A stretch of DNA of 64,000 nt from Candidatus Coprenecus stercoravium (GTDB lineage Bacteria; Bacteroidota; Bacteroidia; Bacteroidales; UBA932): NCBI GenBank assembly GCA_019116865.1, contig DXAW01000093.1, positions 14,640 to 78,639 of the forward strand, in the 5' to 3' direction. The notes under the pieces were generated by a model, which saw only the letters and a list, made by a program, of their open reading frames with translations, was not told the origin of the DNA and did not search any database. Each line of letters begins with the position of its first letter. The stretch's first letter is position 1. Both the position numbers and the translations under genes were made by a program. Shown one piece after another: positions 13,640-52,000 of the stretch.

Positions 13640-13703
13640 CCCCCAAAGATAGCAAAAAGATTAAAATGATATATTTTTGCCTCGGATAAACGTTAAATTT
13701 TAT

Positions 13704-14903
13704 ATGAGTACAGTGAATATAGGGATTTTCGGCAGGAGAAATGTCGGAAAATCCTCGATAATCAACGCTATGACAGGACAGGAGGTGGCGATAGTATCGG
13801 ACCGGCCAGGGACGACTACCGACCCGGTGCGTAAGAGACTGGAGATATTCGGTCTCGGCCCGTGTGTGCTGATAGATACTGCCGGTATAGATGACGAGGG
13901 AGAGCTTGGACAGAAAAGGGTGGCCGGTACGGAGGCTGTTGTGGCTCAGATAGATGTGGCGGTGCTTGTGTTTGCCGGAGATGATTTCGGAGAGCCGGAG
14001 GACAGGCTCATGCGGCAGTTCAGGAGATATTCCTTGCCGGTAGTGCTGGTGCATAACAAATCCGACAAGGCAGCTCTTACCGGTAGCACTGCGGACAGAC
14101 TGTCCGCCGAGTATTCATTGCCTGTGCTGGAATTTTCCGCCCGGACCGCCGGGTCAGGGACAGGTGTGGCTGAGTTGACAGACCGTATACGTCAGGTGGT
14201 GAAAAACTCTGCTTTCAGTGCGGAGAGGCCAATGTTTGAAGGGCTGGTGGAGGAAGGACAGCATGTGCTTCTGGTATGCCCGATAGACAGCGAGGCTCCT
14301 ACAGGAAGGCTGATACTTCCTCAGGTCAATGCGATACGCAATTTATTGGACATAGGCGCCGTGGTCACAGTGGCGCAGCCTGACAGGATAGGACAGGTGC
14401 TTTCCTGCAGCCGCAACGGATTCGATCTAGTTGTCACGGACAGTCAGGCGTTCGGAGAAGTGGCTGAGGCTGTGCCCGGGGAGATTCCTCTGACCAGCTT
14501 CAGTATGCTTTTGGCCAGAAGCAAGGGCTGTTTCAAGGAATATTGCGAGGGGACACCGAGGATAAGCAGTCTGAAAGACGGGGACAGGATACTGATACTC
14601 GAATCCTGCACTCATCACGCTTCCTGTGATGATATCGGCAGGGTCAGGATACCGGCGCTTATGCGGAAATTCACGGGGAAGACCCTGGCATTCGATGTGG
14701 TGGGCGGACTTGATACAGTGGAGAGGCCGGTCAAGGAATATGCGCTGGTGCTTCAGTGCGGGGGCTGCATGATTACCCGCCGGCAGCTATTCTCCAGGCT
14801 GTTGCCGGCTATCGAGTCCGGTGTTCCGGTCACTAATTACGGTATGGCCATTTCCTATATGAAAGGCATTTACGACAGGGCGCTCAAACCGTTGCTGAAA
14901 TGA
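13704..14903 (+). CDS. hydF: [FeFe]-hydrogenase H-cluster maturation GTPase HydF
   Basis: The P-loop region GIFGRRNVGKSSIINAMTGQEVAIVSDRPGTTTDPV is present, with C-terminal Cys residues. The ATG at 13704 is preferred over the TTG at 13677. Confidence 0.85.
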   Translation: MSTVNIGIFGRRNVGKSSIINAMTGQEVAIVSDRPGTTTDPVRKRLEIFGLGPCVLIDTAGIDDEGELGQKRVAGTEAVVAQIDVAVLVFAGDDFGEPEDRLMRQFRRYSLPVVLVHNKSDKAALTGSTADRLSAEYSLPVLEFSARTAGSGTGVAELTDRIRQVVKNSAFSAERPMFEGLVEEGQHVLLVCPIDSEAPTGRLILPQVNAIRNLLDIGAVVTVAQPDRIGQVLSCSRNGFDLVVTDSQAFGEVAEAVPGEIPLTSFSMLLARSKGCFKEYCEGTPRISSLKDGDRILILESCTHHASCDDIGRVRIPALMRKFTGKTLAFDVVGGLDTVERPVKEYALVLQCGGCMITRRQLFSRLLPAIESGVPVTNYGMAISYMKGIYDRALKPLLK

Positions 14904-15937
14904 CAAGGGAGGAACTTATATCAGCTCTGGAGGATCCCGGTCCGGAGAATGCGGCCGTCCTGTATGCCAAGGCATATGAGGTGAAAAAAAAGACAGTGGG
15001 AGAGAGCGTGTATCTGAGAGGACTGGTGGAGATATCCAATATCTGCCGGAAGAATTGCCTTTATTGCGGCATACGGAGGGATAACGGCAATACACGCAGA
15101 TATGAGCTGGAGCCGGAGGAGGTTCTGAGGGCGGCTGAGTTTGCATACAACGGGGGCTACGGCTCGCTCGTTATCCAGGGAGGAGAGCGTACTGACCGCA
15201 GGTTCATAGATAAGATAACGTCCCTTTTGGCGGAGATAAAGCGCCGGTGGCCTCTCGGAATAACCCTTTCTCTCGGAGAGCAGTCCAAGGAGGTGTACCG
15301 GGAATGGTTTGAGGCGGGAGCGCACAGATACTTGCTCCGCATAGAGTCCTCCACAAAGGAACTTTATGAGAAAATCCATCCTGCTGATGCGCTTCACAGC
15401 TATGAGACAAGACTGGAGGCCCTTGTCAATCTTCGCGGATGCGGGTATCAGGTGGGTACTGGAGTCATGATAGGCCTGCCTTTCCAGACAGCCGCGCATC
15501 TGGCGGATGACCTGCTGTTTTTCAAGCGCATGGACATAGACATGTGCGGCATGGGACCGTATCTGGAACACTCCGGGACACCGTTGTATGAGTATCGGGA
15601 CCGACTCATGCCGAAGTATGACAGGCTGGAACTATCGCTTAGGATGGTGGCGTTGCTAAGGCTGCTCATGCCAGATATCAACATAGCGGCCACAACAGCC
15701 ATGCAGGCCATAGCTCCGGACGGCAGGGAGAGGGCTATAATGGCAGGAGCCAATGTGCTTATGCCCAATCTCACATTGTCGGATGTGAGGGAGGAGTACC
15801 AGATATATCAGAACAAACCGGGAGTGGGGGAGGATGCGGCCATATCCTCCTCCATGACCGAGAAGCGGTTGAGGGATATGAAAATCCCCATCGGTTATGG
15901 CCGGTGGGGAGATTCACTGCATTTCAGCAAGAGATAG
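14900..15937 (+). CDS. hydE: [FeFe]-hydrogenase maturase HydE (radical SAM)
   Basis: The radical-SAM motif CRKNCLYCGIRRDN is present and the architecture is BioB-like. An ATGA overlap links it to hydF. Confidence 0.8.
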   Translation: MTREELISALEDPGPENAAVLYAKAYEVKKKTVGESVYLRGLVEISNICRKNCLYCGIRRDNGNTRRYELEPEEVLRAAEFAYNGGYGSLVIQGGERTDRRFIDKITSLLAEIKRRWPLGITLSLGEQSKEVYREWFEAGAHRYLLRIESSTKELYEKIHPADALHSYETRLEALVNLRGCGYQVGTGVMIGLPFQTAAHLADDLLFFKRMDIDMCGMGPYLEHSGTPLYEYRDRLMPKYDRLELSLRMVALLRLLMPDINIAATTAMQAIAPDGRERAIMAGANVLMPNLTLSDVREEYQIYQNKPGVGEDAAISSSMTEKRLRDMKIPIGYGRWGDSLHFSKR

Positions 15938-15948
15938 AAGTGTCCGTA

Positions 15949-16893
15949 CTACAATTCGATGTGGATACGCTCCGAGATATATTTGTTTCCGGCCCGTAGC
16001 CGGATGTCTATGTAGTTGTCATCCTGCTCGTAGCAATATTCATCGTTGTATTTTATCACTATGGCGTTGCCTTCGATGGTGGAGGACAGCTGTGTGGCGC
16101 AGTTGGACTTGAGCACCGGTCTCTGGCTGGTGGAAATCTCTCTTCCGCCCAGCTTAAGGGTGACGACAGCCTTGCCTTTGCTTACCTGAACGCATTCCAG
16201 AGTAATCTGGTCGTACAGTTCCCGGTAGCGGTTGGAAAGTATCTGAACCTGACCGTACCTCGGATCCTGTGTGTCGAATTCGTCCAGAAACACCCTGAGG
16301 CGGTTGATATTCTCTCCGATTGATTCTACGGACGGTACTGTCCTGATACCGGATTCGAACTGTTCAAGTCCGGCGTTGAGACTATTGTCGTGCTCGATAT
16401 ATTGGGCGGCCAGCATCTTCATGTCATGCTCACTGTAGGGATATTTGACAGCATAGAAATAATCGGTCTGTTTGTTCGACTTCCATTGTCTCTGCTCCCA
16501 GTAGAAGTCCGTAGCCTTGGCCAGGGATATCTCGCTGATAAAAGGCAGTTTGGCTGTTCTGGACACGATGGATGTCTCAAGCTGTTGGGCGCTCGAGAAG
16601 CCGTCGGCGTTTTCCGAATAGGAGGAGAGCAGGCTGGACTCTGCGACGACACGGGTCGCTATGCTCTGAGCTATCTGCTGCTTGACAGACTCTGTCACGG
16701 CTGCTTTCGCCTCCTCAATGCTGCTGCCGGAGGCCGTTGCTATCAGATAGCCGTTCTCAACGGAATTAACCCATTCGGGCATGTGCTTTGCACTTGCGTC
16801 AAGTATCTTGTACTGTGCTTTCTGAGCATATGAGGGAAGGACTGACGCCACACTTGCCGCAAGAATGCAGATAATAGTCCTTAGTGTTTTCAT
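15949..16893 (-). CDS. Exported protein with N-terminal LPP20-like module (314 aa), last gene of the five-gene operon
   Basis: The signal peptide ends ..SVLPSYAQ. The stretch MPEWVNSVENGYLIATASGSSIEEAKAAVTESVKQQIAQSIATRV matches the LPP20 pattern. An ATGA overlap links it to the upstream gene. Confidence 0.6.
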   Translation of the reverse strand: MKTLRTIICILAASVASVLPSYAQKAQYKILDASAKHMPEWVNSVENGYLIATASGSSIEEAKAAVTESVKQQIAQSIATRVVAESSLLSSYSENADGFSSAQQLETSIVSRTAKLPFISEISLAKATDFYWEQRQWKSNKQTDYFYAVKYPYSEHDMKMLAAQYIEHDNSLNAGLEQFESGIRTVPSVESIGENINRLRVFLDEFDTQDPRYGQVQILSNRYRELYDQITLECVQVSKGKAVVTLKLGGREISTSQRPVLKSNCATQLSSTIEGNAIVIKYNDEYCYEQDDNYIDIRLRAGNKYISERIHIEL

Positions 16894-17363
16894 TCTGTCT
16901 TGTCTGATTGGTTAATATGCTCGTTGTAGTATTCCTTTGCCTGATTGATCATAGCCCGGAGCTTGGGGTCACGGGCCTTGATTTTCTTTACCGCATCCAT
17001 ATATGAGGACTTGTCATTGTCGGCTATGCCCTTTACCGTGAAGGATGTCTGGCTCAGGTTCTCTCCTGTCTCAATGTCTGTGATGAAGATTGATATCTCC
17101 AGTTCCGTGACGTACATCGGCGGAGCGGTGGGTGTGACGTCCTTTGACAGCAGGATGGCATCCGTCCTCATGATGAACCGGCTGTATTCCGCCGATACAT
17201 TGTTGAGAACCAGTGCCTGTGTAAGATTGGACTTGAGTGTTGCGGCAGCGTTCTCATGAGTGATTCCGTCCGGAGCGGCCACAAATATCTTCAGCTCGTC
17301 CTCGGCATGCAGGAGCATGACAGTGGACAGCAGGAAGGCAGCGATTGTAATAAACTTTCTCAT
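16890..17363 (-). CDS. Exported protein (157 aa), LpoB/TolB-N/FlgO-like pattern
   Basis: The signal peptide is MRKFITIAAFLLSTVMLLHA. The mature start LKIFVAAPDG is followed by the amphipathic helix AATLKSNLTQALVLNN. Confidence 0.6.
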   Translation of the reverse strand: MRKFITIAAFLLSTVMLLHAEDELKIFVAAPDGITHENAAATLKSNLTQALVLNNVSAEYSRFIMRTDAILLSKDVTPTAPPMYVTELEISIFITDIETGENLSQTSFTVKGIADNDKSSYMDAVKKIKARDPKLRAMINQAKEYYNEHINQSDKTE

Positions 17364-17378
17364 AGCGTATCAGTGTTA

Positions 17379-18344
17379 TCAGTCTCCAAGAACAATCCAT
17401 ACATTGCCGAGTCCCCTTTCATTGATGGAGTAGGGAAGATTGAAAGGCTCCTTGTTGAGGAAGCGGGCGAGATCCATGGCGAATGAGCGTGTGTCTATAG
17501 CTCTCTCCTTGCCAAGTACAGTCTTGTAGAGAGGAATCCTTACCTGCTCATAATCAGTGTAGTAGTCTCCGCCTCCGGCTCTGGTGAAGCGATGGTTGAC
17601 AGTGTTCTCGTCCATCCACCAGTCAAGTATGTCGGTGAGGGCCACTATCTCTCCCATAAACTCGAAATCGTCATACATGGTCACGGGGCAGTTGTCAGTC
17701 ATGCGTACTGATATGGTGACCTCGCGGCCGTTTGCGAACATGTCGTCGAAGTGATTCTGCAGTGCGGCGTTGAAAGCGTCCATATAGTTAAGTACGGCTT
17801 CCTCCACCAGAATGCCGGTGGATACAGCCGTGGAGGGCTGTCCGTCACCGGATGCAGTGGTGATGACCTTGCTGGTGTATGCGTCGATACCGCGGAGGTT
17901 GAACGAGATATATTTCTGAGGGCCTCTGGACTTGATGTTGAAATCCAGGTCCATGATGATGTCTGCCTTTGCAGTCCTTTTCAGTTTGTCCAGCGGAGAC
18001 TCATATATCGAACCGCCTCCACGGCCGGAGAATAGAGCGGCTTCGGCAGCCTGGCTCTCCATGGTCTTGAGGGTCTGTTCGAGATCCTTCAGAGGGAAGC
18101 CTCTGTCGGCCATGATTCTGGAAAGCTCGGAGATGGCAAGACGCAGGTTCTCATCGCTCAGGAAAGCCCTGCCGTAATCGGCTGATGAGTGTGTGGTGCC
18201 GTTTTCGTCCTGATAATTTGTGACATATCCTTCCCTTTCGCAGTAGATGTCGCTGGGGATTACCATGATGGTAGGCTTTTTTGCCTGTGAGAAAGCTGTC
18301 AGTGCAGACAGCATCATGATGATTGAAAGTATTGTCTTTTTCAT
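17379..18344 (-). CDS. Exported protein (321 aa), N-terminal LpoB/FlgO-like pattern plus C-terminal domain
   Basis: The signal peptide ends ..LTAFSQ. KPTIMVIPSD is followed by the helix LRLAISELSRIMADRGFPL. No catalytic motif is seen. Confidence 0.6.
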   Translation of the reverse strand: MKKTILSIIMMLSALTAFSQAKKPTIMVIPSDIYCEREGYVTNYQDENGTTHSSADYGRAFLSDENLRLAISELSRIMADRGFPLKDLEQTLKTMESQAAEAALFSGRGGGSIYESPLDKLKRTAKADIIMDLDFNIKSRGPQKYISFNLRGIDAYTSKVITTASGDGQPSTAVSTGILVEEAVLNYMDAFNAALQNHFDDMFANGREVTISVRMTDNCPVTMYDDFEFMGEIVALTDILDWWMDENTVNHRFTRAGGGDYYTDYEQVRIPLYKTVLGKERAIDTRSFAMDLARFLNKEPFNLPYSINERGLGNVWIVLGD

Positions 18345-18353
18345 AGTGCGGTG

Positions 18354-18854
18354 TTAAAATCCTGAATTAAGAGATCTGATTACGCCTGCATCCTGCAGGT
18401 CGTTGCGGAGGTTGTCGTACATTACCTGTACTATGAGCCCGATTTTATAGCCTCCTTTGACTTTTATCTTGTCCTGCTCGGGTATGACTCCGTCCGAGGT
18501 GATGTTGACATATCTAAGATACTGTCCTCCCGGAGTGAAGAAATTCTCGAAAAAAGCAGAGTGCTTCTGTTCGTCCGAACTGCTGCACAGAGCCGGGGTG
18601 CCGCTTACGGCCCCTGCTGACGGAAGTCCCCGGAAAATGCATACTTCCACGGCTGCCTTTTTGGCCAGAGCTATGGCTTTTTTCTCATTTTTCTCAGTTA
18701 CGTAGATTTTGAAAACTTTCGTACCGTCCGTTCCGACTCCCAGTGTGACTACCTCGTAGTTACGGGAATCCTTGTAAGTGTATTTCTGTCCGTAGGCCGG
18801 TGCCGCCAGGAAGGCGCATACGGCGAGCATGGTGATTATTGTACGTGTTCTCAT
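18354..18854 (-). CDS. Exported small protein (166 aa), unknown function
   Basis: The signal peptide is MRTRTIITMLAVCAFLAAPAYGQ. The gene sits 2 nt after the upstream gene and 9 nt before the next. Confidence 0.6.
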   Translation of the reverse strand: MRTRTIITMLAVCAFLAAPAYGQKYTYKDSRNYEVVTLGVGTDGTKVFKIYVTEKNEKKAIALAKKAAVEVCIFRGLPSAGAVSGTPALCSSSDEQKHSAFFENFFTPGGQYLRYVNITSDGVIPEQDKIKVKGGYKIGLIVQVMYDNLRNDLQDAGVIRSLNSGF

Positions 18855-18856
18855 GG

Positions 18857-19309
18857 CTATAGTATGTTGTCTACTTCAAATGCTATTTTCTTTTTTTCAA
18901 AATCATTGAAATCGTAAAGGATGTAGTAGAGATATACGTCTTGTTTCTTGATTACCCTGTGCTCCCAGTATGTCTCTACGGCGGTCCATTCGGATATATT
19001 GCGTACAAAATCCGTATTCTCCACGGCTTCAAGGATGTCGTTGACGTCCCTGCCCTGGAAATTAATACCGAGCAGGTATTTTGTGACCGACGAGACAACT
19101 ATGTCATGCAGCTTGTCAAATGCCGCATCCCTTGCGCTGTTGATACTTACTGTGCTTTCGCCGCGGACTTTCATCAGGTACGCGCTTCCCGGATCCTTCT
19201 TGACCCATACAGGACGTTTTTCGCTGCTGCTTTCCTGTAGCTTGCCCTGTCCGTATGAAGATGAGAGAGCGGTCAGGCAGACTGCAAGTATGAGTAGAAA
19301 TCTTTTCAT
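18857..19309 (-). CDS. Exported LPP20-like protein (150 aa), first gene of the operon
   Basis: The ATG at 19309 gives the signal peptide MKRFLLILAVCLTALSSSYGQ. The stretch RPVWVKKDP..VRGES..SARDAAFDKLHDIVVSSV matches the LPP20 pattern. The ORF-track start at 19351 is TTG and would include the predicted promoter box. Confidence 0.6.
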   Translation of the reverse strand: MKRFLLILAVCLTALSSSYGQGKLQESSSEKRPVWVKKDPGSAYLMKVRGESTVSINSARDAAFDKLHDIVVSSVTKYLLGINFQGRDVNDILEAVENTDFVRNISEWTAVETYWEHRVIKKQDVYLYYILYDFNDFEKKKIAFEVDNIL

Positions 19310-19338
19310 AGCATATAATTTATGATTGTCAATATTTA

Positions 19339-19346
19339 CAAATATA
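19339..19346 (-). promoter_or_regulatory. Bacteroidetes -7 promoter element (TATATTTG) for the exported-protein operon
   Basis: The minus strand reads TATATTTG, matching TAnnTTTG, 30-37 nt upstream of the ATG at 19309. Confidence 0.3.
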
Positions 19347-19415
19347 CGCAATAATGTTCAATCATGCCAAATGTGACATGAAAAAATGACTAGTGCGGGT
19401 GTTATCAGGTCCGTA

Positions 19416-20117
19416 TTATTCTAAATACATTGTTCCCAATTCTTTGAAGTTAATTTCATTATAACCGTCATTTATTACGCCAGTCATTATTTCGTCGCCA
19501 TTAAGCACGATATTGTGACCATTGCGTATGAATTGAAAATGCATTGTTTCCGTTTCAGTCGGACATGTATATGGCTCTGAAATGTCTTTCAAAGTGTATT
19601 TGTAAAAATGCCCGATATACGCTTTGTCTTCATGGACCAGTTGGTTAATGCTGTCACCGACATACTCTGTTTTCAGATATAAAGTGTCCTCCTCAACAAT
19701 TAATTCATATAGGTAGTTCCCGATATCGTCATTGTAAGAATGGGATTGGTCGGGATAATGATACTCCATTCTTGTGCGGGTACGAACTTGGTAGGTGCCA
19801 ATCGGCTTAACCTCATCTTCGAGGCTGCACTGATCATCAATTCCAAATGATAAAGTATACTTGCCCTTTATGTGATCTACATTCCAAACAGTGTCAATAA
19901 CATTTTTGGTTGACAAGAGTTCTTCCTTGAGCCTTTTTCTGATTTCTTCAGGGAGTGACTCAAATGTAGCTGAATCTACTTCCGAGTGCGGCATTATATA
20001 TTCTTGTACCCATTTTGTGTTTGAAAGTATGTCATCATATACAGGCGTTGGCGTGTTTGATGTTGAACAGGACAGAATAAATATCAAAGTCGTCAACAGG
20101 ACTAATCCCCTTTTCAT
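19416..20117 (-). CDS. Lipoprotein of unknown function (233 aa) in a low-GC islet
   Basis: The signal peptide carries the lipobox FILSC-STS. The gene is visibly AT-rich compared with its neighbours. GGAGG lies 10 nt upstream of the ATG. Confidence 0.6.
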   Translation of the reverse strand: MKRGLVLLTTLIFILSCSTSNTPTPVYDDILSNTKWVQEYIMPHSEVDSATFESLPEEIRKRLKEELLSTKNVIDTVWNVDHIKGKYTLSFGIDDQCSLEDEVKPIGTYQVRTRTRMEYHYPDQSHSYNDDIGNYLYELIVEEDTLYLKTEYVGDSINQLVHEDKAYIGHFYKYTLKDISEPYTCPTETETMHFQFIRNGHNIVLNGDEIMTGVINDGYNEINFKELGTMYLE

Positions 20118-49989: not shown

Positions 49990-51026
49990 TATTTATGAGC
50001 TTTAAGGTATTTCAATATTTTACGGACCATGCCGGGGCCGTTGTAGATAAATCCTGTATATATCTGAATAAGTGAGGCTCCGGCGTCCAGCATCTCCTTG
50101 GCTTGTTCAGGTGTCATGATACCTCCTACGCCTATAATAGGAAGAATGCCTCCGGTCTTTTCGTGAATATGACGGACCATGGCAATGCTTTTCTCATACA
50201 GTGGCTGACCGCTCAGTCCTCCGTTGCCGATGGTTTCCAATTTTTCCTTAGGAGTAGTAAGGCCTTCTCTGGAATTAGTTGTGTTTGTGGCGATTATGCC
50301 GTCCAGTCCGGATGTGAGCGCCAGCTCTACGATACGGTCGACGTGGTCGTACGGTATGTCTGGAGAAATTTTCAGCAGAATAGGGCGGTATTCATCGTAG
50401 TATCGCCGGAGTGTAAGCAGGCGGTCGACTATTTCCGCCAGATAGCCTACGTCCTGCAGGACTGTAAGATTCTTTACATTGGGGCATGATACATTGACGG
50501 TGAAATAATCCACGTAGTCGTACAGAAGCGAGAAAGCTCTCTCATAATCCTTGTAAGCCTCCTCGTTCGGTGTTGTTGACGCTTTGGCAATGTTGCCGCC
50601 TATGATGACGTTAGGAGAGTGTTTCTGTAGCTGTGCGACAGTGTATTTTACGCCTTTATTGTTGATTCCCATCCTGTTGATGATGGCGTTGTCTTCTATG
50701 AGCCTGAACAGTCGTGGCTTTGGATTACCCGGCTGCGGTTCAGGTGTCAGCGAGCCTATCTCCACGAAGCTGAATCCGAAGTTACCCATGTCATTGTAGA
50801 ACTCTCCGTTTTTGTCCAGACCGGCCGCAAGGCCCACCGGATTCTTGAATGTCAGTCCGAATACTTCGCGACGCAGGTCTCCTTCCTTGTCCCTTACGTT
50901 GAACAATGCACGGATAATACTTTGAGATAGAGGGATATAGTGCAGTAAATGCAGTAGTTTGAACGTAATGGCGTGCGCAGTCTCGGCAGAGAAAGAAAAA
51001 AGAATACGACGGATGAGTCTATACAT
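49989..51026 (-). CDS. pyrD: Dihydroorotate dehydrogenase (quinone), class 2
   Basis: The GLAAGLDKNGE, NVSCPN and GVGGI motifs are present, with an N-terminal membrane-associated extension. Confidence 0.9.
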   Translation of the reverse strand: MYRLIRRILFSFSAETAHAITFKLLHLLHYIPLSQSIIRALFNVRDKEGDLRREVFGLTFKNPVGLAAGLDKNGEFYNDMGNFGFSFVEIGSLTPEPQPGNPKPRLFRLIEDNAIINRMGINNKGVKYTVAQLQKHSPNVIIGGNIAKASTTPNEEAYKDYERAFSLLYDYVDYFTVNVSCPNVKNLTVLQDVGYLAEIVDRLLTLRRYYDEYRPILLKISPDIPYDHVDRIVELALTSGLDGIIATNTTNSREGLTTPKEKLETIGNGGLSGQPLYEKSIAMVRHIHEKTGGILPIIGVGGIMTPEQAKEMLDAGASLIQIYTGFIYNGPGMVRKILKYLKAHK

Positions 51027-51068
51027 AATTATGCTCTATTTGATATGTCGCAAAGATACTGTAAAAAA

Positions 51069-51467
51069 CTATTTGGGTGGATAAAATTCCTGAAATGTTC
51101 CGTCAGAGTAGAACAGGGTGATTCTGCGTACGTCTTTTCTCTCCGCCGGCTCTTCCATTTCCATATCAACGCCGCTGTATTCAGGCGCTTCATCCGGTTC
51201 TGTGAACAATACGTCCTGAGCGGACGAAGTTCCAGTCGGTAGAGCGGGGGAGTTCTGTTCACGCAGAGGCTTGCCTTTACCGAGCAGCAGCCAGTCCGGA
51301 TTGACGGACGGAAATTTGTTAAGGAACTTTTGAATGAAATCAAAACTGGGCTTGTTCCTGCCGGACAGGATATGGGAAACATTGGCCCTTTGAATGCCCA
51401 TTATGTCTGCGAACTGCGCCGGTTTGAGTTGTTCCAGCTCCAGAAATTGCTGTAAACGCCTATTCAT
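51069..51467 (-). CDS. XRE-family helix-turn-helix transcriptional regulator
   Basis: The stretch LKPAQFADIMGIQRANVSHILSGRNKPSFDFIQKFLNKFPSVNPDWLLLG is a common Bacteroidetes HTH_19-type module. Confidence 0.75.
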   Translation of the reverse strand: MNRRLQQFLELEQLKPAQFADIMGIQRANVSHILSGRNKPSFDFIQKFLNKFPSVNPDWLLLGKGKPLREQNSPALPTGTSSAQDVLFTEPDEAPEYSGVDMEMEEPAERKDVRRITLFYSDGTFQEFYPPK

Positions 51468-51469
51468 AA

Positions 51470-51902
51470 TTGTTAATTTTAATTTTTACAAATGTAAATA
51501 AAATATCGTTAACAAGTAAACAATGCGAACGATTAACAAATTTTAACAATTTCCATGTAGAAATCACAAGGCTTGTAAATCAAGTATATACAAAAATCTC
51601 ATCTGTTTAACAATTAGTGTATGTGAATATGTGTAAAATATTGATAATGCGCATACAATACTTAAAAATCTCAACTATATAACACACTTTTTCTGCCCAA
51701 AAGCGCAACGTCGTGCGCAAATTACTCAACAATACTTGATGTAAATATTATAAATAACTGATAATAGAAACAATAACTATCACAAAACATGCTAATAAAT
51801 TTTAATTATCACACTCTAAAAGCAGATGCATCACAAATGTAAACTACTCTATTCTACGGTTTATATTTGTTAAAATAGATAAACAGTAATTGTAATTAAC
51901 AA
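51470..51902. repeat. Array of seven TTAACAA/TTGTTAA heptamers in an AT-rich 530-bp intergenic region
   Basis: Copies start at 51470 (reverse), 51509, 51533, 51543, 51607, 51867 (reverse) and 51896. Two extended near-identical boxes are TTAACAAGTAAACAA (51509) and TTAACAAGTGTAAACAA (51896). Confidence 0.5.
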
Positions 51903-51953
51903 GTGTAAACAAAATTAGAAAACGGATTATTTTGACTTGGTCTGGATATTGTA

Positions 51954-51961
51954 TAGCTTTG
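51954..51961 (+). promoter_or_regulatory. Candidate -7 promoter element (TAGCTTTG) for queA
   Basis: The sequence matches TAnnTTTG, 40 nt upstream of the queA ATG. Confidence 0.3.
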
Positions 51962-52000
51962 CATCAGAAAGTCCGTAAAAACGGCTAAAAATGCGAAATA

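Follow-up and report, generated by a model that had tools for sequence, protein, structure and literature searches.

Five adjacent genes, termed G1 to G5, occupy part of a 64,000 nucleotide (nt) stretch of the Candidatus Coprenecus stercoravium genome (assembly GCA_019116865.1, contig DXAW01000093.1, positions 14,640 to 78,639; hereafter the window). These genes constitute a lineage-specific edition of a gene cluster that is found across the Bacteroidota and whose members include the Pfam family DUF6175, represented here by G3. The cluster probably encodes a cell-envelope assembly that has escaped previous study. What is new is the setting of familiar ring-building modules: the gene set is new, the phylum is non-flagellated, lipid anchors are lacking, and two unannotated families (G2 and an upstream gene termed GU) accompany the modules. 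The genes and their promoter are arranged as follows:

G1, 18857-19309, minus strand: open reading frame (ORF) of 150 amino acids (aa)
G2, 18354-18854, minus strand: ORF of 166 aa
G3, 17379-18344, minus strand: ORF of 321 aa
G4, 16890-17363, minus strand: ORF of 157 aa
G5, 15949-16893, minus strand: ORF of 314 aa
Promoter, 19339..19371, minus strand: Bacteroides-type, with a -33 element TTTG, a 21-nt spacer and a -7 element TATATTTG

A first-pass annotation made from the letters of the window had described five consecutive minus-strand genes behind a -7 box, and the ORFs agree with this layout. From G1 to G5, the first three junctions are gaps of 2, 9 and 15 nt, and G4 and G5 overlap by 4 nt (ATGA). 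The -7 box TATATTTG lies at 19339-19346, approximately 29 nt from the G1 ATG at 19309, and is preceded 21 nt upstream by TTTG at 19368-19371. The Bacteroides -33/-7 promoter consensus is TTTG / TAnnTTTG. Sites of the form TTTG-N18-22-TAnnTTTG occur eight times in the window where 0.54 would be expected (approximately 15-fold enrichment), and none of 100 shuffles reached eight. A longer version of G1 could begin at a TTG codon (19351), but this codon resides within the promoter, and therefore we place the start of G1 at ATG 19309. We conclude that G1 to G5 form a single operon behind one Bacteroides-type promoter. The eight motif sites of the window (19339, 32677, 41620, 51931, 53241, 54517, 56938 and 56967) also provide a handy marker of transcription units.

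The five proteins are identical to HIZ85851-HIZ85855 of a Ca. Coprenecus stercoravium metagenome-assembled genome (Rikenellaceae, Bacteroidales), where the NCBI annotation lists all of them as hypothetical. UniRef assigns the names ‘Lipoprotein’ to G1, ‘DUF4124 domain-containing’ to G2 and ‘LPP20 lipoprotein’ to G5. Our own sequence scans support neither of the first two names, and the DUF4124 label was set aside after Pfam scans of G2 and 33 of its relatives.

All five products carry the features of exported proteins. Each has two Lys or Arg residues within its first eight positions and a hydrophobic core with a Kyte-Doolittle 11-residue maximum of 2.45-3.01, and none has a second hydrophobic segment (19-residue maximum of at most 1.13). 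A lipobox cysteine is absent from all five leaders. The only N-terminal cysteines (G1 C11, G2 C13 and G5 C9) are situated within the hydrophobic region with V or I at position -1, and hence are not lipobox residues. The leaders end in sequences such as SSYG/Q for G1 and PSYA/Q for G5 (slash indicates the cleavage site). Cleavage would leave an N-terminal Gln on four of the five products, which fits the Q-rule described for signal peptidase I substrates of Bacteroidetes (PMC5837995). When simple sequence-pattern calls were applied to relatives, no lipobox was found in 17/19 members of the G5 family, 9/9 of the G1 family, 50/51 of the G3 family and 49/49 of the G4 family. Furthermore, Pfam and NCBIfam scans of G1 to G5 revealed no enzymatic, nucleotide-binding or metal-binding domain. 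As the first-pass annotation had proposed from leader features and the lack of catalytic motifs, the five sequences are thus predicted to encode soluble, non-enzymatic proteins exported by Sec and processed by signal peptidase I.

The conservation of the operon was assessed at 50 loci that encode DUF6175 relatives, using one genome per species and assigning neighbouring ORFs to families. These loci span Bacteroidales, Flavobacteriales, Chitinophagales and Saprospiraceae, and share the order GU - G2 - (G2') - G3 - G4 - (G5) - (LPP20 lipoprotein) with spacers that are mostly shorter than 30 nt. G4 is located beside G3 in 49 of the 50 loci, the exception (L037) being a contig that ends approximately 250 bp past G3. 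G2 is present with G3 in 42 loci and directly adjoins it in 41, and a second copy of G2 that is a lipoprotein (G2') is found in 13. The five genes had initially been treated as one set. The G2-G3-G4 portion of this set does recur across the Bacteroidota, whereas G5 occurs in 19 of the 50 loci and G1 is restricted to its own clade, the eight loci most closely related to the window (L003-L010). In these eight loci GU is absent and G1 occupies its position. G2 has been lost from seven of these eight relatives, but is retained in L008 and in the window. The conserved unit is therefore G2-G3-G4, usually with an upstream GU, rather than the five genes of the window. Two DUF6175 clusters with a flavobacterial-type organisation were recovered from genomes binned as Oscillospiraceae (L024) and Akkermansia (L043); these occurrences outside Bacteroidota are probably the result of binning contamination.

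The GU family comprises exported proteins of approximately 410-735 aa that are encoded upstream of the core in approximately 39 of the 50 loci (e.g. L012:3761-5374 and L018:3922-5463). Its members share a YRRSSL-type N-terminal motif and a KIGxKEG motif, and the family has no Pfam entry of its own. Of 20 GU proteins that were aligned, three gave a hit to a C-terminal outer-membrane beta-barrel (Pfam OMP_b-brl); these three come from Bacteroidales, whereas flavobacterial GU proteins lack the barrel. A PDB sequence/profile search with GU was negative, and a GU homologue that was sought in the window is absent. Three loci from Flavobacteriaceae or Flavobacterium (L022, L026 and L044) encode a second, longer GU paralogue (605-616 aa) downstream of G4. 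The one paralogue that was aligned, from L026, has a beta-barrel-like C-terminus.

In the related loci, we found no linked substrate gene, glycosyltransferase, amyloid subunit, penicillin-binding protein (PBP), LptD, flagellar, type IX secretion system (T9SS) or pilus gene. Together with the assignment of the host to Rikenellaceae, the lack of flagellar genes agrees with the non-flagellar, Bacteroidales setting that had been suggested for the window.

Among the neighbouring genes, G2 is the partner tied most tightly to G3. Three protein clusters (P0046, P0050 and P0157) join G2 and mature G3 in a single reading frame, and the G3 signal peptide is replaced. These fusions occur in two different gene contexts (L053:6001-7407 and L056:4782-6173). 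The P0046 fusion lies in the arrangement (G2-G3)-G4-G5 and was recovered on at least 24 contigs, which derive from different samples. The P0157 fusion is only 39% identical to G3. On the P0157 contig (L056), the fusion is found together with G4, G5, an LPP20 lipoprotein and GU, although in another order. The natural fusion of G2 and G3 in some lineages suggests that the two proteins act directly with each other. Moreover, the fusion and the retention of the gene set after rearrangement argue for a functional unit and not simply for inherited synteny. Searches of Pfam, NCBIfam and the PDB yielded no relative of G2 itself, whose family is without a Pfam model. A PDB hit to Tako8 was dismissed as a repeat artefact, as it contained zero significant stretches.

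G3 is a full-length representative of DUF6175 (PF19672; E value of 3.6e-98, 328.7 bits against a cut-off of 23), with residues 22-320 covering profile positions 1-293 of 293. We found 6809 homologues of G3 in the protein collection. An AlphaFold2 model of G3 built from a 59-sequence alignment reached a mean predicted local distance difference test score (pLDDT) of 85.9. Foldseek comparison of this model with the PDB returned 14 matches at E values of 1e-3 or lower, all of which belong to one structural group, with probabilities of up to 1.00. The leading matches are GNA1162 (4.4e-5), the CsgG pre-pore (1.4e-4) and the crystal structure of FlgT (3w1e). Another match, chain 8z5n_0, is inferred from its chain length to be FlgT of the Vibrio LPHT ring. 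Weaker E values were obtained for XCC0632, PelC (template modelling (TM) score to target of 0.62-0.66) and LpoB (4q6z) of the same group, with PelC giving the best TM-scores to the G3 N-domain. The match encompasses this N-domain (approximately residues 22-205).

The model of G4 exhibits a pLDDT of 86.5, with values above 90 in the mature part. Its alignment was taken from a homologue search with a concatenated G2 and G4 query, which returned 14 proteins. Foldseek yielded 54 matches for G4 at E values of 1e-3 or lower, led by HpaA (3.7e-6) and FlgT (7.3e-6) and also including 5tse, PelC (TM-score of approximately 0.45-0.5), CsgG, GNA1162, LptE (4rh8), CC_3750, Cj1090c (7rxu) and an Acinetobacter baumannii minor lipoprotein. 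The G4 of the window is a short form of its family, consisting of a single alpha/beta domain and a C-terminal helix, while most relatives are approximately 320 aa long and carry a helical extension. When the G4 and G3 profiles were compared, only the signal peptides aligned, and thus the two proteins have a common fold without detectable sequence similarity. Neither G3 nor G4 gave a Pfam or NCBIfam hit to CsgG, DUF799, LpoB or related models, and PDB sequence/profile searches with both were negative. The models show the G3 N-domain and G4 with the alpha/beta fold of PelC, CsgG, GNA1162, LpoB, LptE and FlgT, a result that agrees with the earlier assignment of LpoB/TolB-N/CsgG-type modules to the 321-aa and 157-aa proteins. 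The lipid anchor that is characteristic of CsgG, PelC and LpoB is lacking in G3 and G4, as neither has a lipobox.

G5 consists of an LPP20-like N-module (approximately residues 25-165), a helical linker and a C-terminal beta-rich part. G1 is homologous to the G5 N-domain over approximately the first 150 residues. The P-x-W pattern that had been noted in the first and last proteins stems from true homology: a joint alignment shows P39 and W41 unchanged throughout, a G5 orthologue retrieves G1 by tblastn (E value of 9.5e-5), and the two families merge in an iterative hidden Markov model (HMM) search. G1, which gave no Pfam hit, is a paralogue of the G5 N-domain and comprises a single divergent LPP20-like module.

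The earlier assignment of G1 and G5 to the LPP20 family holds only at the level of remote homology. Pfam LPP20 (PF02169; gathering score of 25.9 bits) does not hit G1 or G5 of the window even at E values up to 1, and neither protein is a lipoprotein. In contrast, profile comparison by hhalign links the G5/G1 family to the Pfam-positive LPP20 lipoproteins of related loci at 90.5%. With a 118-sequence G5-family profile and the signal peptide excluded, the comparison gives 88.1% and spans 112 columns. When 1.84 billion representatives were searched with a profile, 446 G5-family clusters (at 50% identity) were identified. LPP20 is the sole recurrent Pfam family among the G5-family representatives (22/118, best E value of 4.5e-5; other families occur at most twice), and an HMM of the LPP20 lipoproteins matches a G5 orthologue at 6e-5. 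These comparisons show G1 and the G5 N-domain as divergent LPP20-type modules, with a relationship at the superfamily level. PDB sequence/profile searches with G5 and with the G5-family profile were negative.

LPP20-like proteins of three kinds are found with the core in different lineages. In addition to the G5/G1 family, true LPP20 lipoproteins are encoded in the same operon in some related loci (27.8 bits versus the cut-off of 25.9), and FlgT_N-like proteins that match the G5 N-domain at 91.8% are encoded after the core in Flavobacterium (L049 and L050). LPP20-type modules therefore have been recruited in at least three forms. The G5 orthologues of L003-L010 are approximately 640 aa (639 aa) long and include CarboxypepD_reg and Laminin_G_3 domains, the latter being concanavalin A (ConA)-like lectin domains (e.g. 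L003:7461-9380). The window G5 ends before this half of the protein, and no remnant of it precedes the convergent radical S-adenosylmethionine (SAM) gene downstream. Short forms of G5 are found elsewhere as well.

We lean slightly towards the view that the operon encodes a hetero-oligomeric scaffold situated near the outer membrane; any specific ring geometry is less probable than the scaffold itself. In such an assembly, the products of G1 to G5 would combine in roughly equal amounts beneath the outer membrane, as a ring or a lattice. G3 and G2 could make up the central oligomer, G4 might act as an adaptor or form a second layer, with G1 and G5 as peripheral LPP20-type layers. The lectin-like domain of G5 from sister lineages hints at contact with a glycan, which could be peptidoglycan or a surface polymer. 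The scaffold may support or gate some envelope process. Because no subunit is lipidated, membrane attachment in this genome would need a partner encoded elsewhere or the cell wall.

Several observations weigh against a scaffold of this kind. None of G1 to G5 is a lipoprotein, unlike PelC, CsgG, LpoB, LptE, FlgO, FlgP and Lpp20, and since the window also lacks the barrel-bearing GU, association with the membrane is left unexplained. The structural relationships exist at the level of fold only, with moderate Foldseek TM-scores (0.2-0.66) and approximately 10% sequence identity, and the G4 model was built on only 11 aligned sequences. Foldseek assigned no fold to the alpha/beta C-domain of G3 (approximately residues 207-321). 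Similarly, the G2 profile aligned with the LPP20, G5, G3, G4 and GU profiles only in the signal peptides, giving no fold match. Finally, the insertion that follows the LPP20 helix in G1 and G5 looks helical by sequence, unlike the ring-forming beta-hairpin of FlgP. The corresponding insertion of Lpp20 is helical.

A broader proposal is that the DUF6175 cluster as a whole (GU, G2, G3 and G4 with LPP20-like proteins) is an unrecognised phylum-wide envelope machine that forms an outer-membrane-associated ring or lattice and is distinct from the T9SS and the Sus, Bam, Lpt and Tol-Pal systems. We regard this proposal as tentative and on balance doubtful. If it is true, PelC/CsgG-type and LPP20-type ring modules pre-date, or stand apart from, their flagellar, curli and Pel uses.

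The known structures most similar to the proposed scaffold are those of flagellar accessory rings. The Vibrio H-ring (FlgT, FlgP and FlgO) and the Campylobacter FlgP basal disk are likewise built from co-expressed, non-enzymatic proteins with LPP20/SHS2 and TolB-N/LpoB-type modules, and the Foldseek searches with G3 and with G4 both returned FlgT directly. FlgP, FlgT and Lpp20 have a common SHS2-like fold, and FlgP forms rings (PMC12222027). Moreover, FlgT forms a C26 ring, and FlgO and FlgP form C58 rings (doi 10.64898/2025.12.02.691832). The components of the H-ring and basal disk form concentric rings under the outer membrane. The settings differ, as the H-ring and basal disk serve in a flagellar context, while the operon in the window is flanked by pyruvate phosphate dikinase (PPDK), HydE and HydF genes, and no flagellar genes are present in related loci. 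FlgO and FlgP are lipoproteins, in contrast to all of G1 to G5, and G1 and G5 have no evident ring-forming beta-hairpin insert. The H-ring and basal disk contain nothing equivalent to G2, the DUF6175 C-domain or GU.

PelC, CsgG, FlgT, FlgO and FlgP all oligomerise as rings beneath or in the outer membrane. PelC, the dodecameric lipoprotein ring of the Pel exporter (PDB 5t10/5t11 and 9h80), has a single-domain alpha/beta fold in common with the G3 N-domain and G4. However, PelC has a lipid anchor, and its partners are the PelB barrel and the pel biosynthesis genes, none of which is linked here. Ring size varies among these proteins, with CsgG forming a 9-mer and PelC a 12-mer. A proteobacterial three-gene cluster that encodes CsgG/HfaB-like and GNA1162 (DUF799)-like proteins with a lipoprotein is similar in being a small, widespread and largely uninvestigated operon for exported, non-enzymatic proteins, but it resides in another phylum, includes an accessory set other than G2, GU and LPP20-like proteins, and specifies lipid anchors that G1 to G5 lack. 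No Pfam hit to CsgG, DUF799 or DUF4810, nor to any other curli family (CsgA/B/E/F), was obtained with the operon or the family alignments. Helicobacter pylori Lpp20 (PF02169) is remotely related to G1 and the G5 N-domain, although the window proteins are non-lipoproteins that score under the Pfam threshold and G5 has helical and beta-rich regions beyond Lpp20. The H. pylori adhesin HpaA and its paralogues are matched by the G4 model. LpoB and LptE have an alpha/beta fold of the same class, but these lower-ranked matches are lipoproteins whose partners, PBP1B and LptD, are unlinked here.

The strongest competing explanation, although an unlikely one in our estimation, is that the cluster encodes an export or anchoring apparatus for an extracellular polysaccharide or amyloid, comparable to PelB/PelC, CsgG/E/F, HfaABD or the CsgG-like/GNA1162-like cluster. 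G3 would serve as a periplasmic funnel under an outer-membrane pore (the GU barrel where present), with G2 and G4 as accessory proteins and G5 as a polymer holder. The best structural matches of G3 (GNA1162, CsgG and PelC) are consistent with this arrangement, as are the beta-barrel in some GU proteins and the ConA-like lectin domain of long G5 orthologues; in A. baumannii, poly-N-acetylglucosamine (PNAG) and biofilm are affected by a CsgG-like cluster that includes a GNA1162 homologue. A polymer exporter is more difficult to reconcile with the lack of any conserved neighbouring substrate gene, glycosyltransferase or amyloid subunit. In addition, neither GU nor any other barrel is encoded in the window, flavobacterial GU proteins are without a barrel, and G3 has neither a lipid anchor nor evident CsgG-type transmembrane hairpins. 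We consider it improbable that the five proteins are independent secreted binding proteins or adhesins that share an operon and no joint structure. HpaA and its paralogues do rank among the top G4 matches, which recalls HpaA- and Lpp20-like antigens, and Lpp20 is an antigen of outer-membrane vesicles. However, strict gene order and tight spacing throughout the phylum, retention of the set after rearrangement and the fusion of G2 with G3 are typical of subunits of one assembly.

Even less probable is a role for these proteins as LpoB-like or LptE-like regulators of peptidoglycan synthases or of the lipopolysaccharide (LPS) translocon. LpoB (4q6z), LptE (4rh8) and Cj1090c (7rxu) appear among the Foldseek matches, but rank below PelC, CsgG, GNA1162 and FlgT. 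The proteins are not lipoproteins, no locus links them to a PBP or LptD gene, and close relatives do without G2 or GU, unlike what would be expected of an essential machine. It would be very surprising if the operon proved to be an accessory set of a known machine (T9SS, FimA/Mfa pili or a Sus-like system) or to be carried as cargo by a mobile element, phage or defence system. We found nothing in support of such an origin. Pfam, NCBIfam, PADLOC and PHROGs gave no matches to these families, including the pilus and T9SS families that the first-pass annotation had singled out as a possible refutation. The flanking genes are of the housekeeping type (PPDK and HydE/HydF here, FtsH and OMP decarboxylase in another lineage), and no T9SS or pilus linkage is conserved in the 50 loci.

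The expectation that no characterised system would correspond to this gene set was borne out: a literature search found no paper that mentions DUF6175, and NCBIfam, PADLOC and PHROGs gave no matches. Likewise, searches on LPP20 in Bacteroid* and on GNA1162/DUF799/DUF4810 returned nothing on the DUF6175 cluster. Bacteroidota are dominant in animal guts and in many marine environments, and much of their envelope biology is uncharted. Homologues of the cluster number in the thousands, yet a DUF number has been given to just one of its five or six families. Its folds tie it to the outer-membrane ring builders PelC, CsgG, FlgO, FlgP and FlgT, so that the cluster stands as a concrete candidate, open to testing, for a new envelope assembly in a phylum that lacks flagella, and the G2-G3 fusion offers a direct entry point for structural work. 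Confirmation of the proposed scaffold would place an extra machine on the envelope parts list of Bacteroidota, and would shed light on the evolution of flagellar accessory rings and polymer-export funnels from shared modules.

Two additional features border the operon:

HydF GTPase gene (Pfam HydF_dimer, HydF_tetramer) with an overlapping radical-SAM gene, 13677-15937, plus strand: [FeFe]-hydrogenase maturation genes
G0, 19416-20117, minus strand: predicted lipoprotein of 233 aa with a leader ending in LSC, between PPDK and the promoter

The HydF/radical-SAM pair is convergent with G5, with only 11 nt separating the stop codons, and we infer that the radical-SAM gene is HydE- or HydG-like. On the upstream side, where PPDK forms the flank, G0 was considered as a sixth operon member but discarded, since none of the 50 related loci encodes a homologue, the G+C content of G0 is 0.38 versus 0.51 for the window, and the promoter separates it from G1. 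No Pfam, NCBIfam or PHROGs match was found for G0, which may have been inserted recently at this site between PPDK and the promoter. Elsewhere in the window, G+C content reaches its minimum at 50001-52000 (0.421 versus 0.506).

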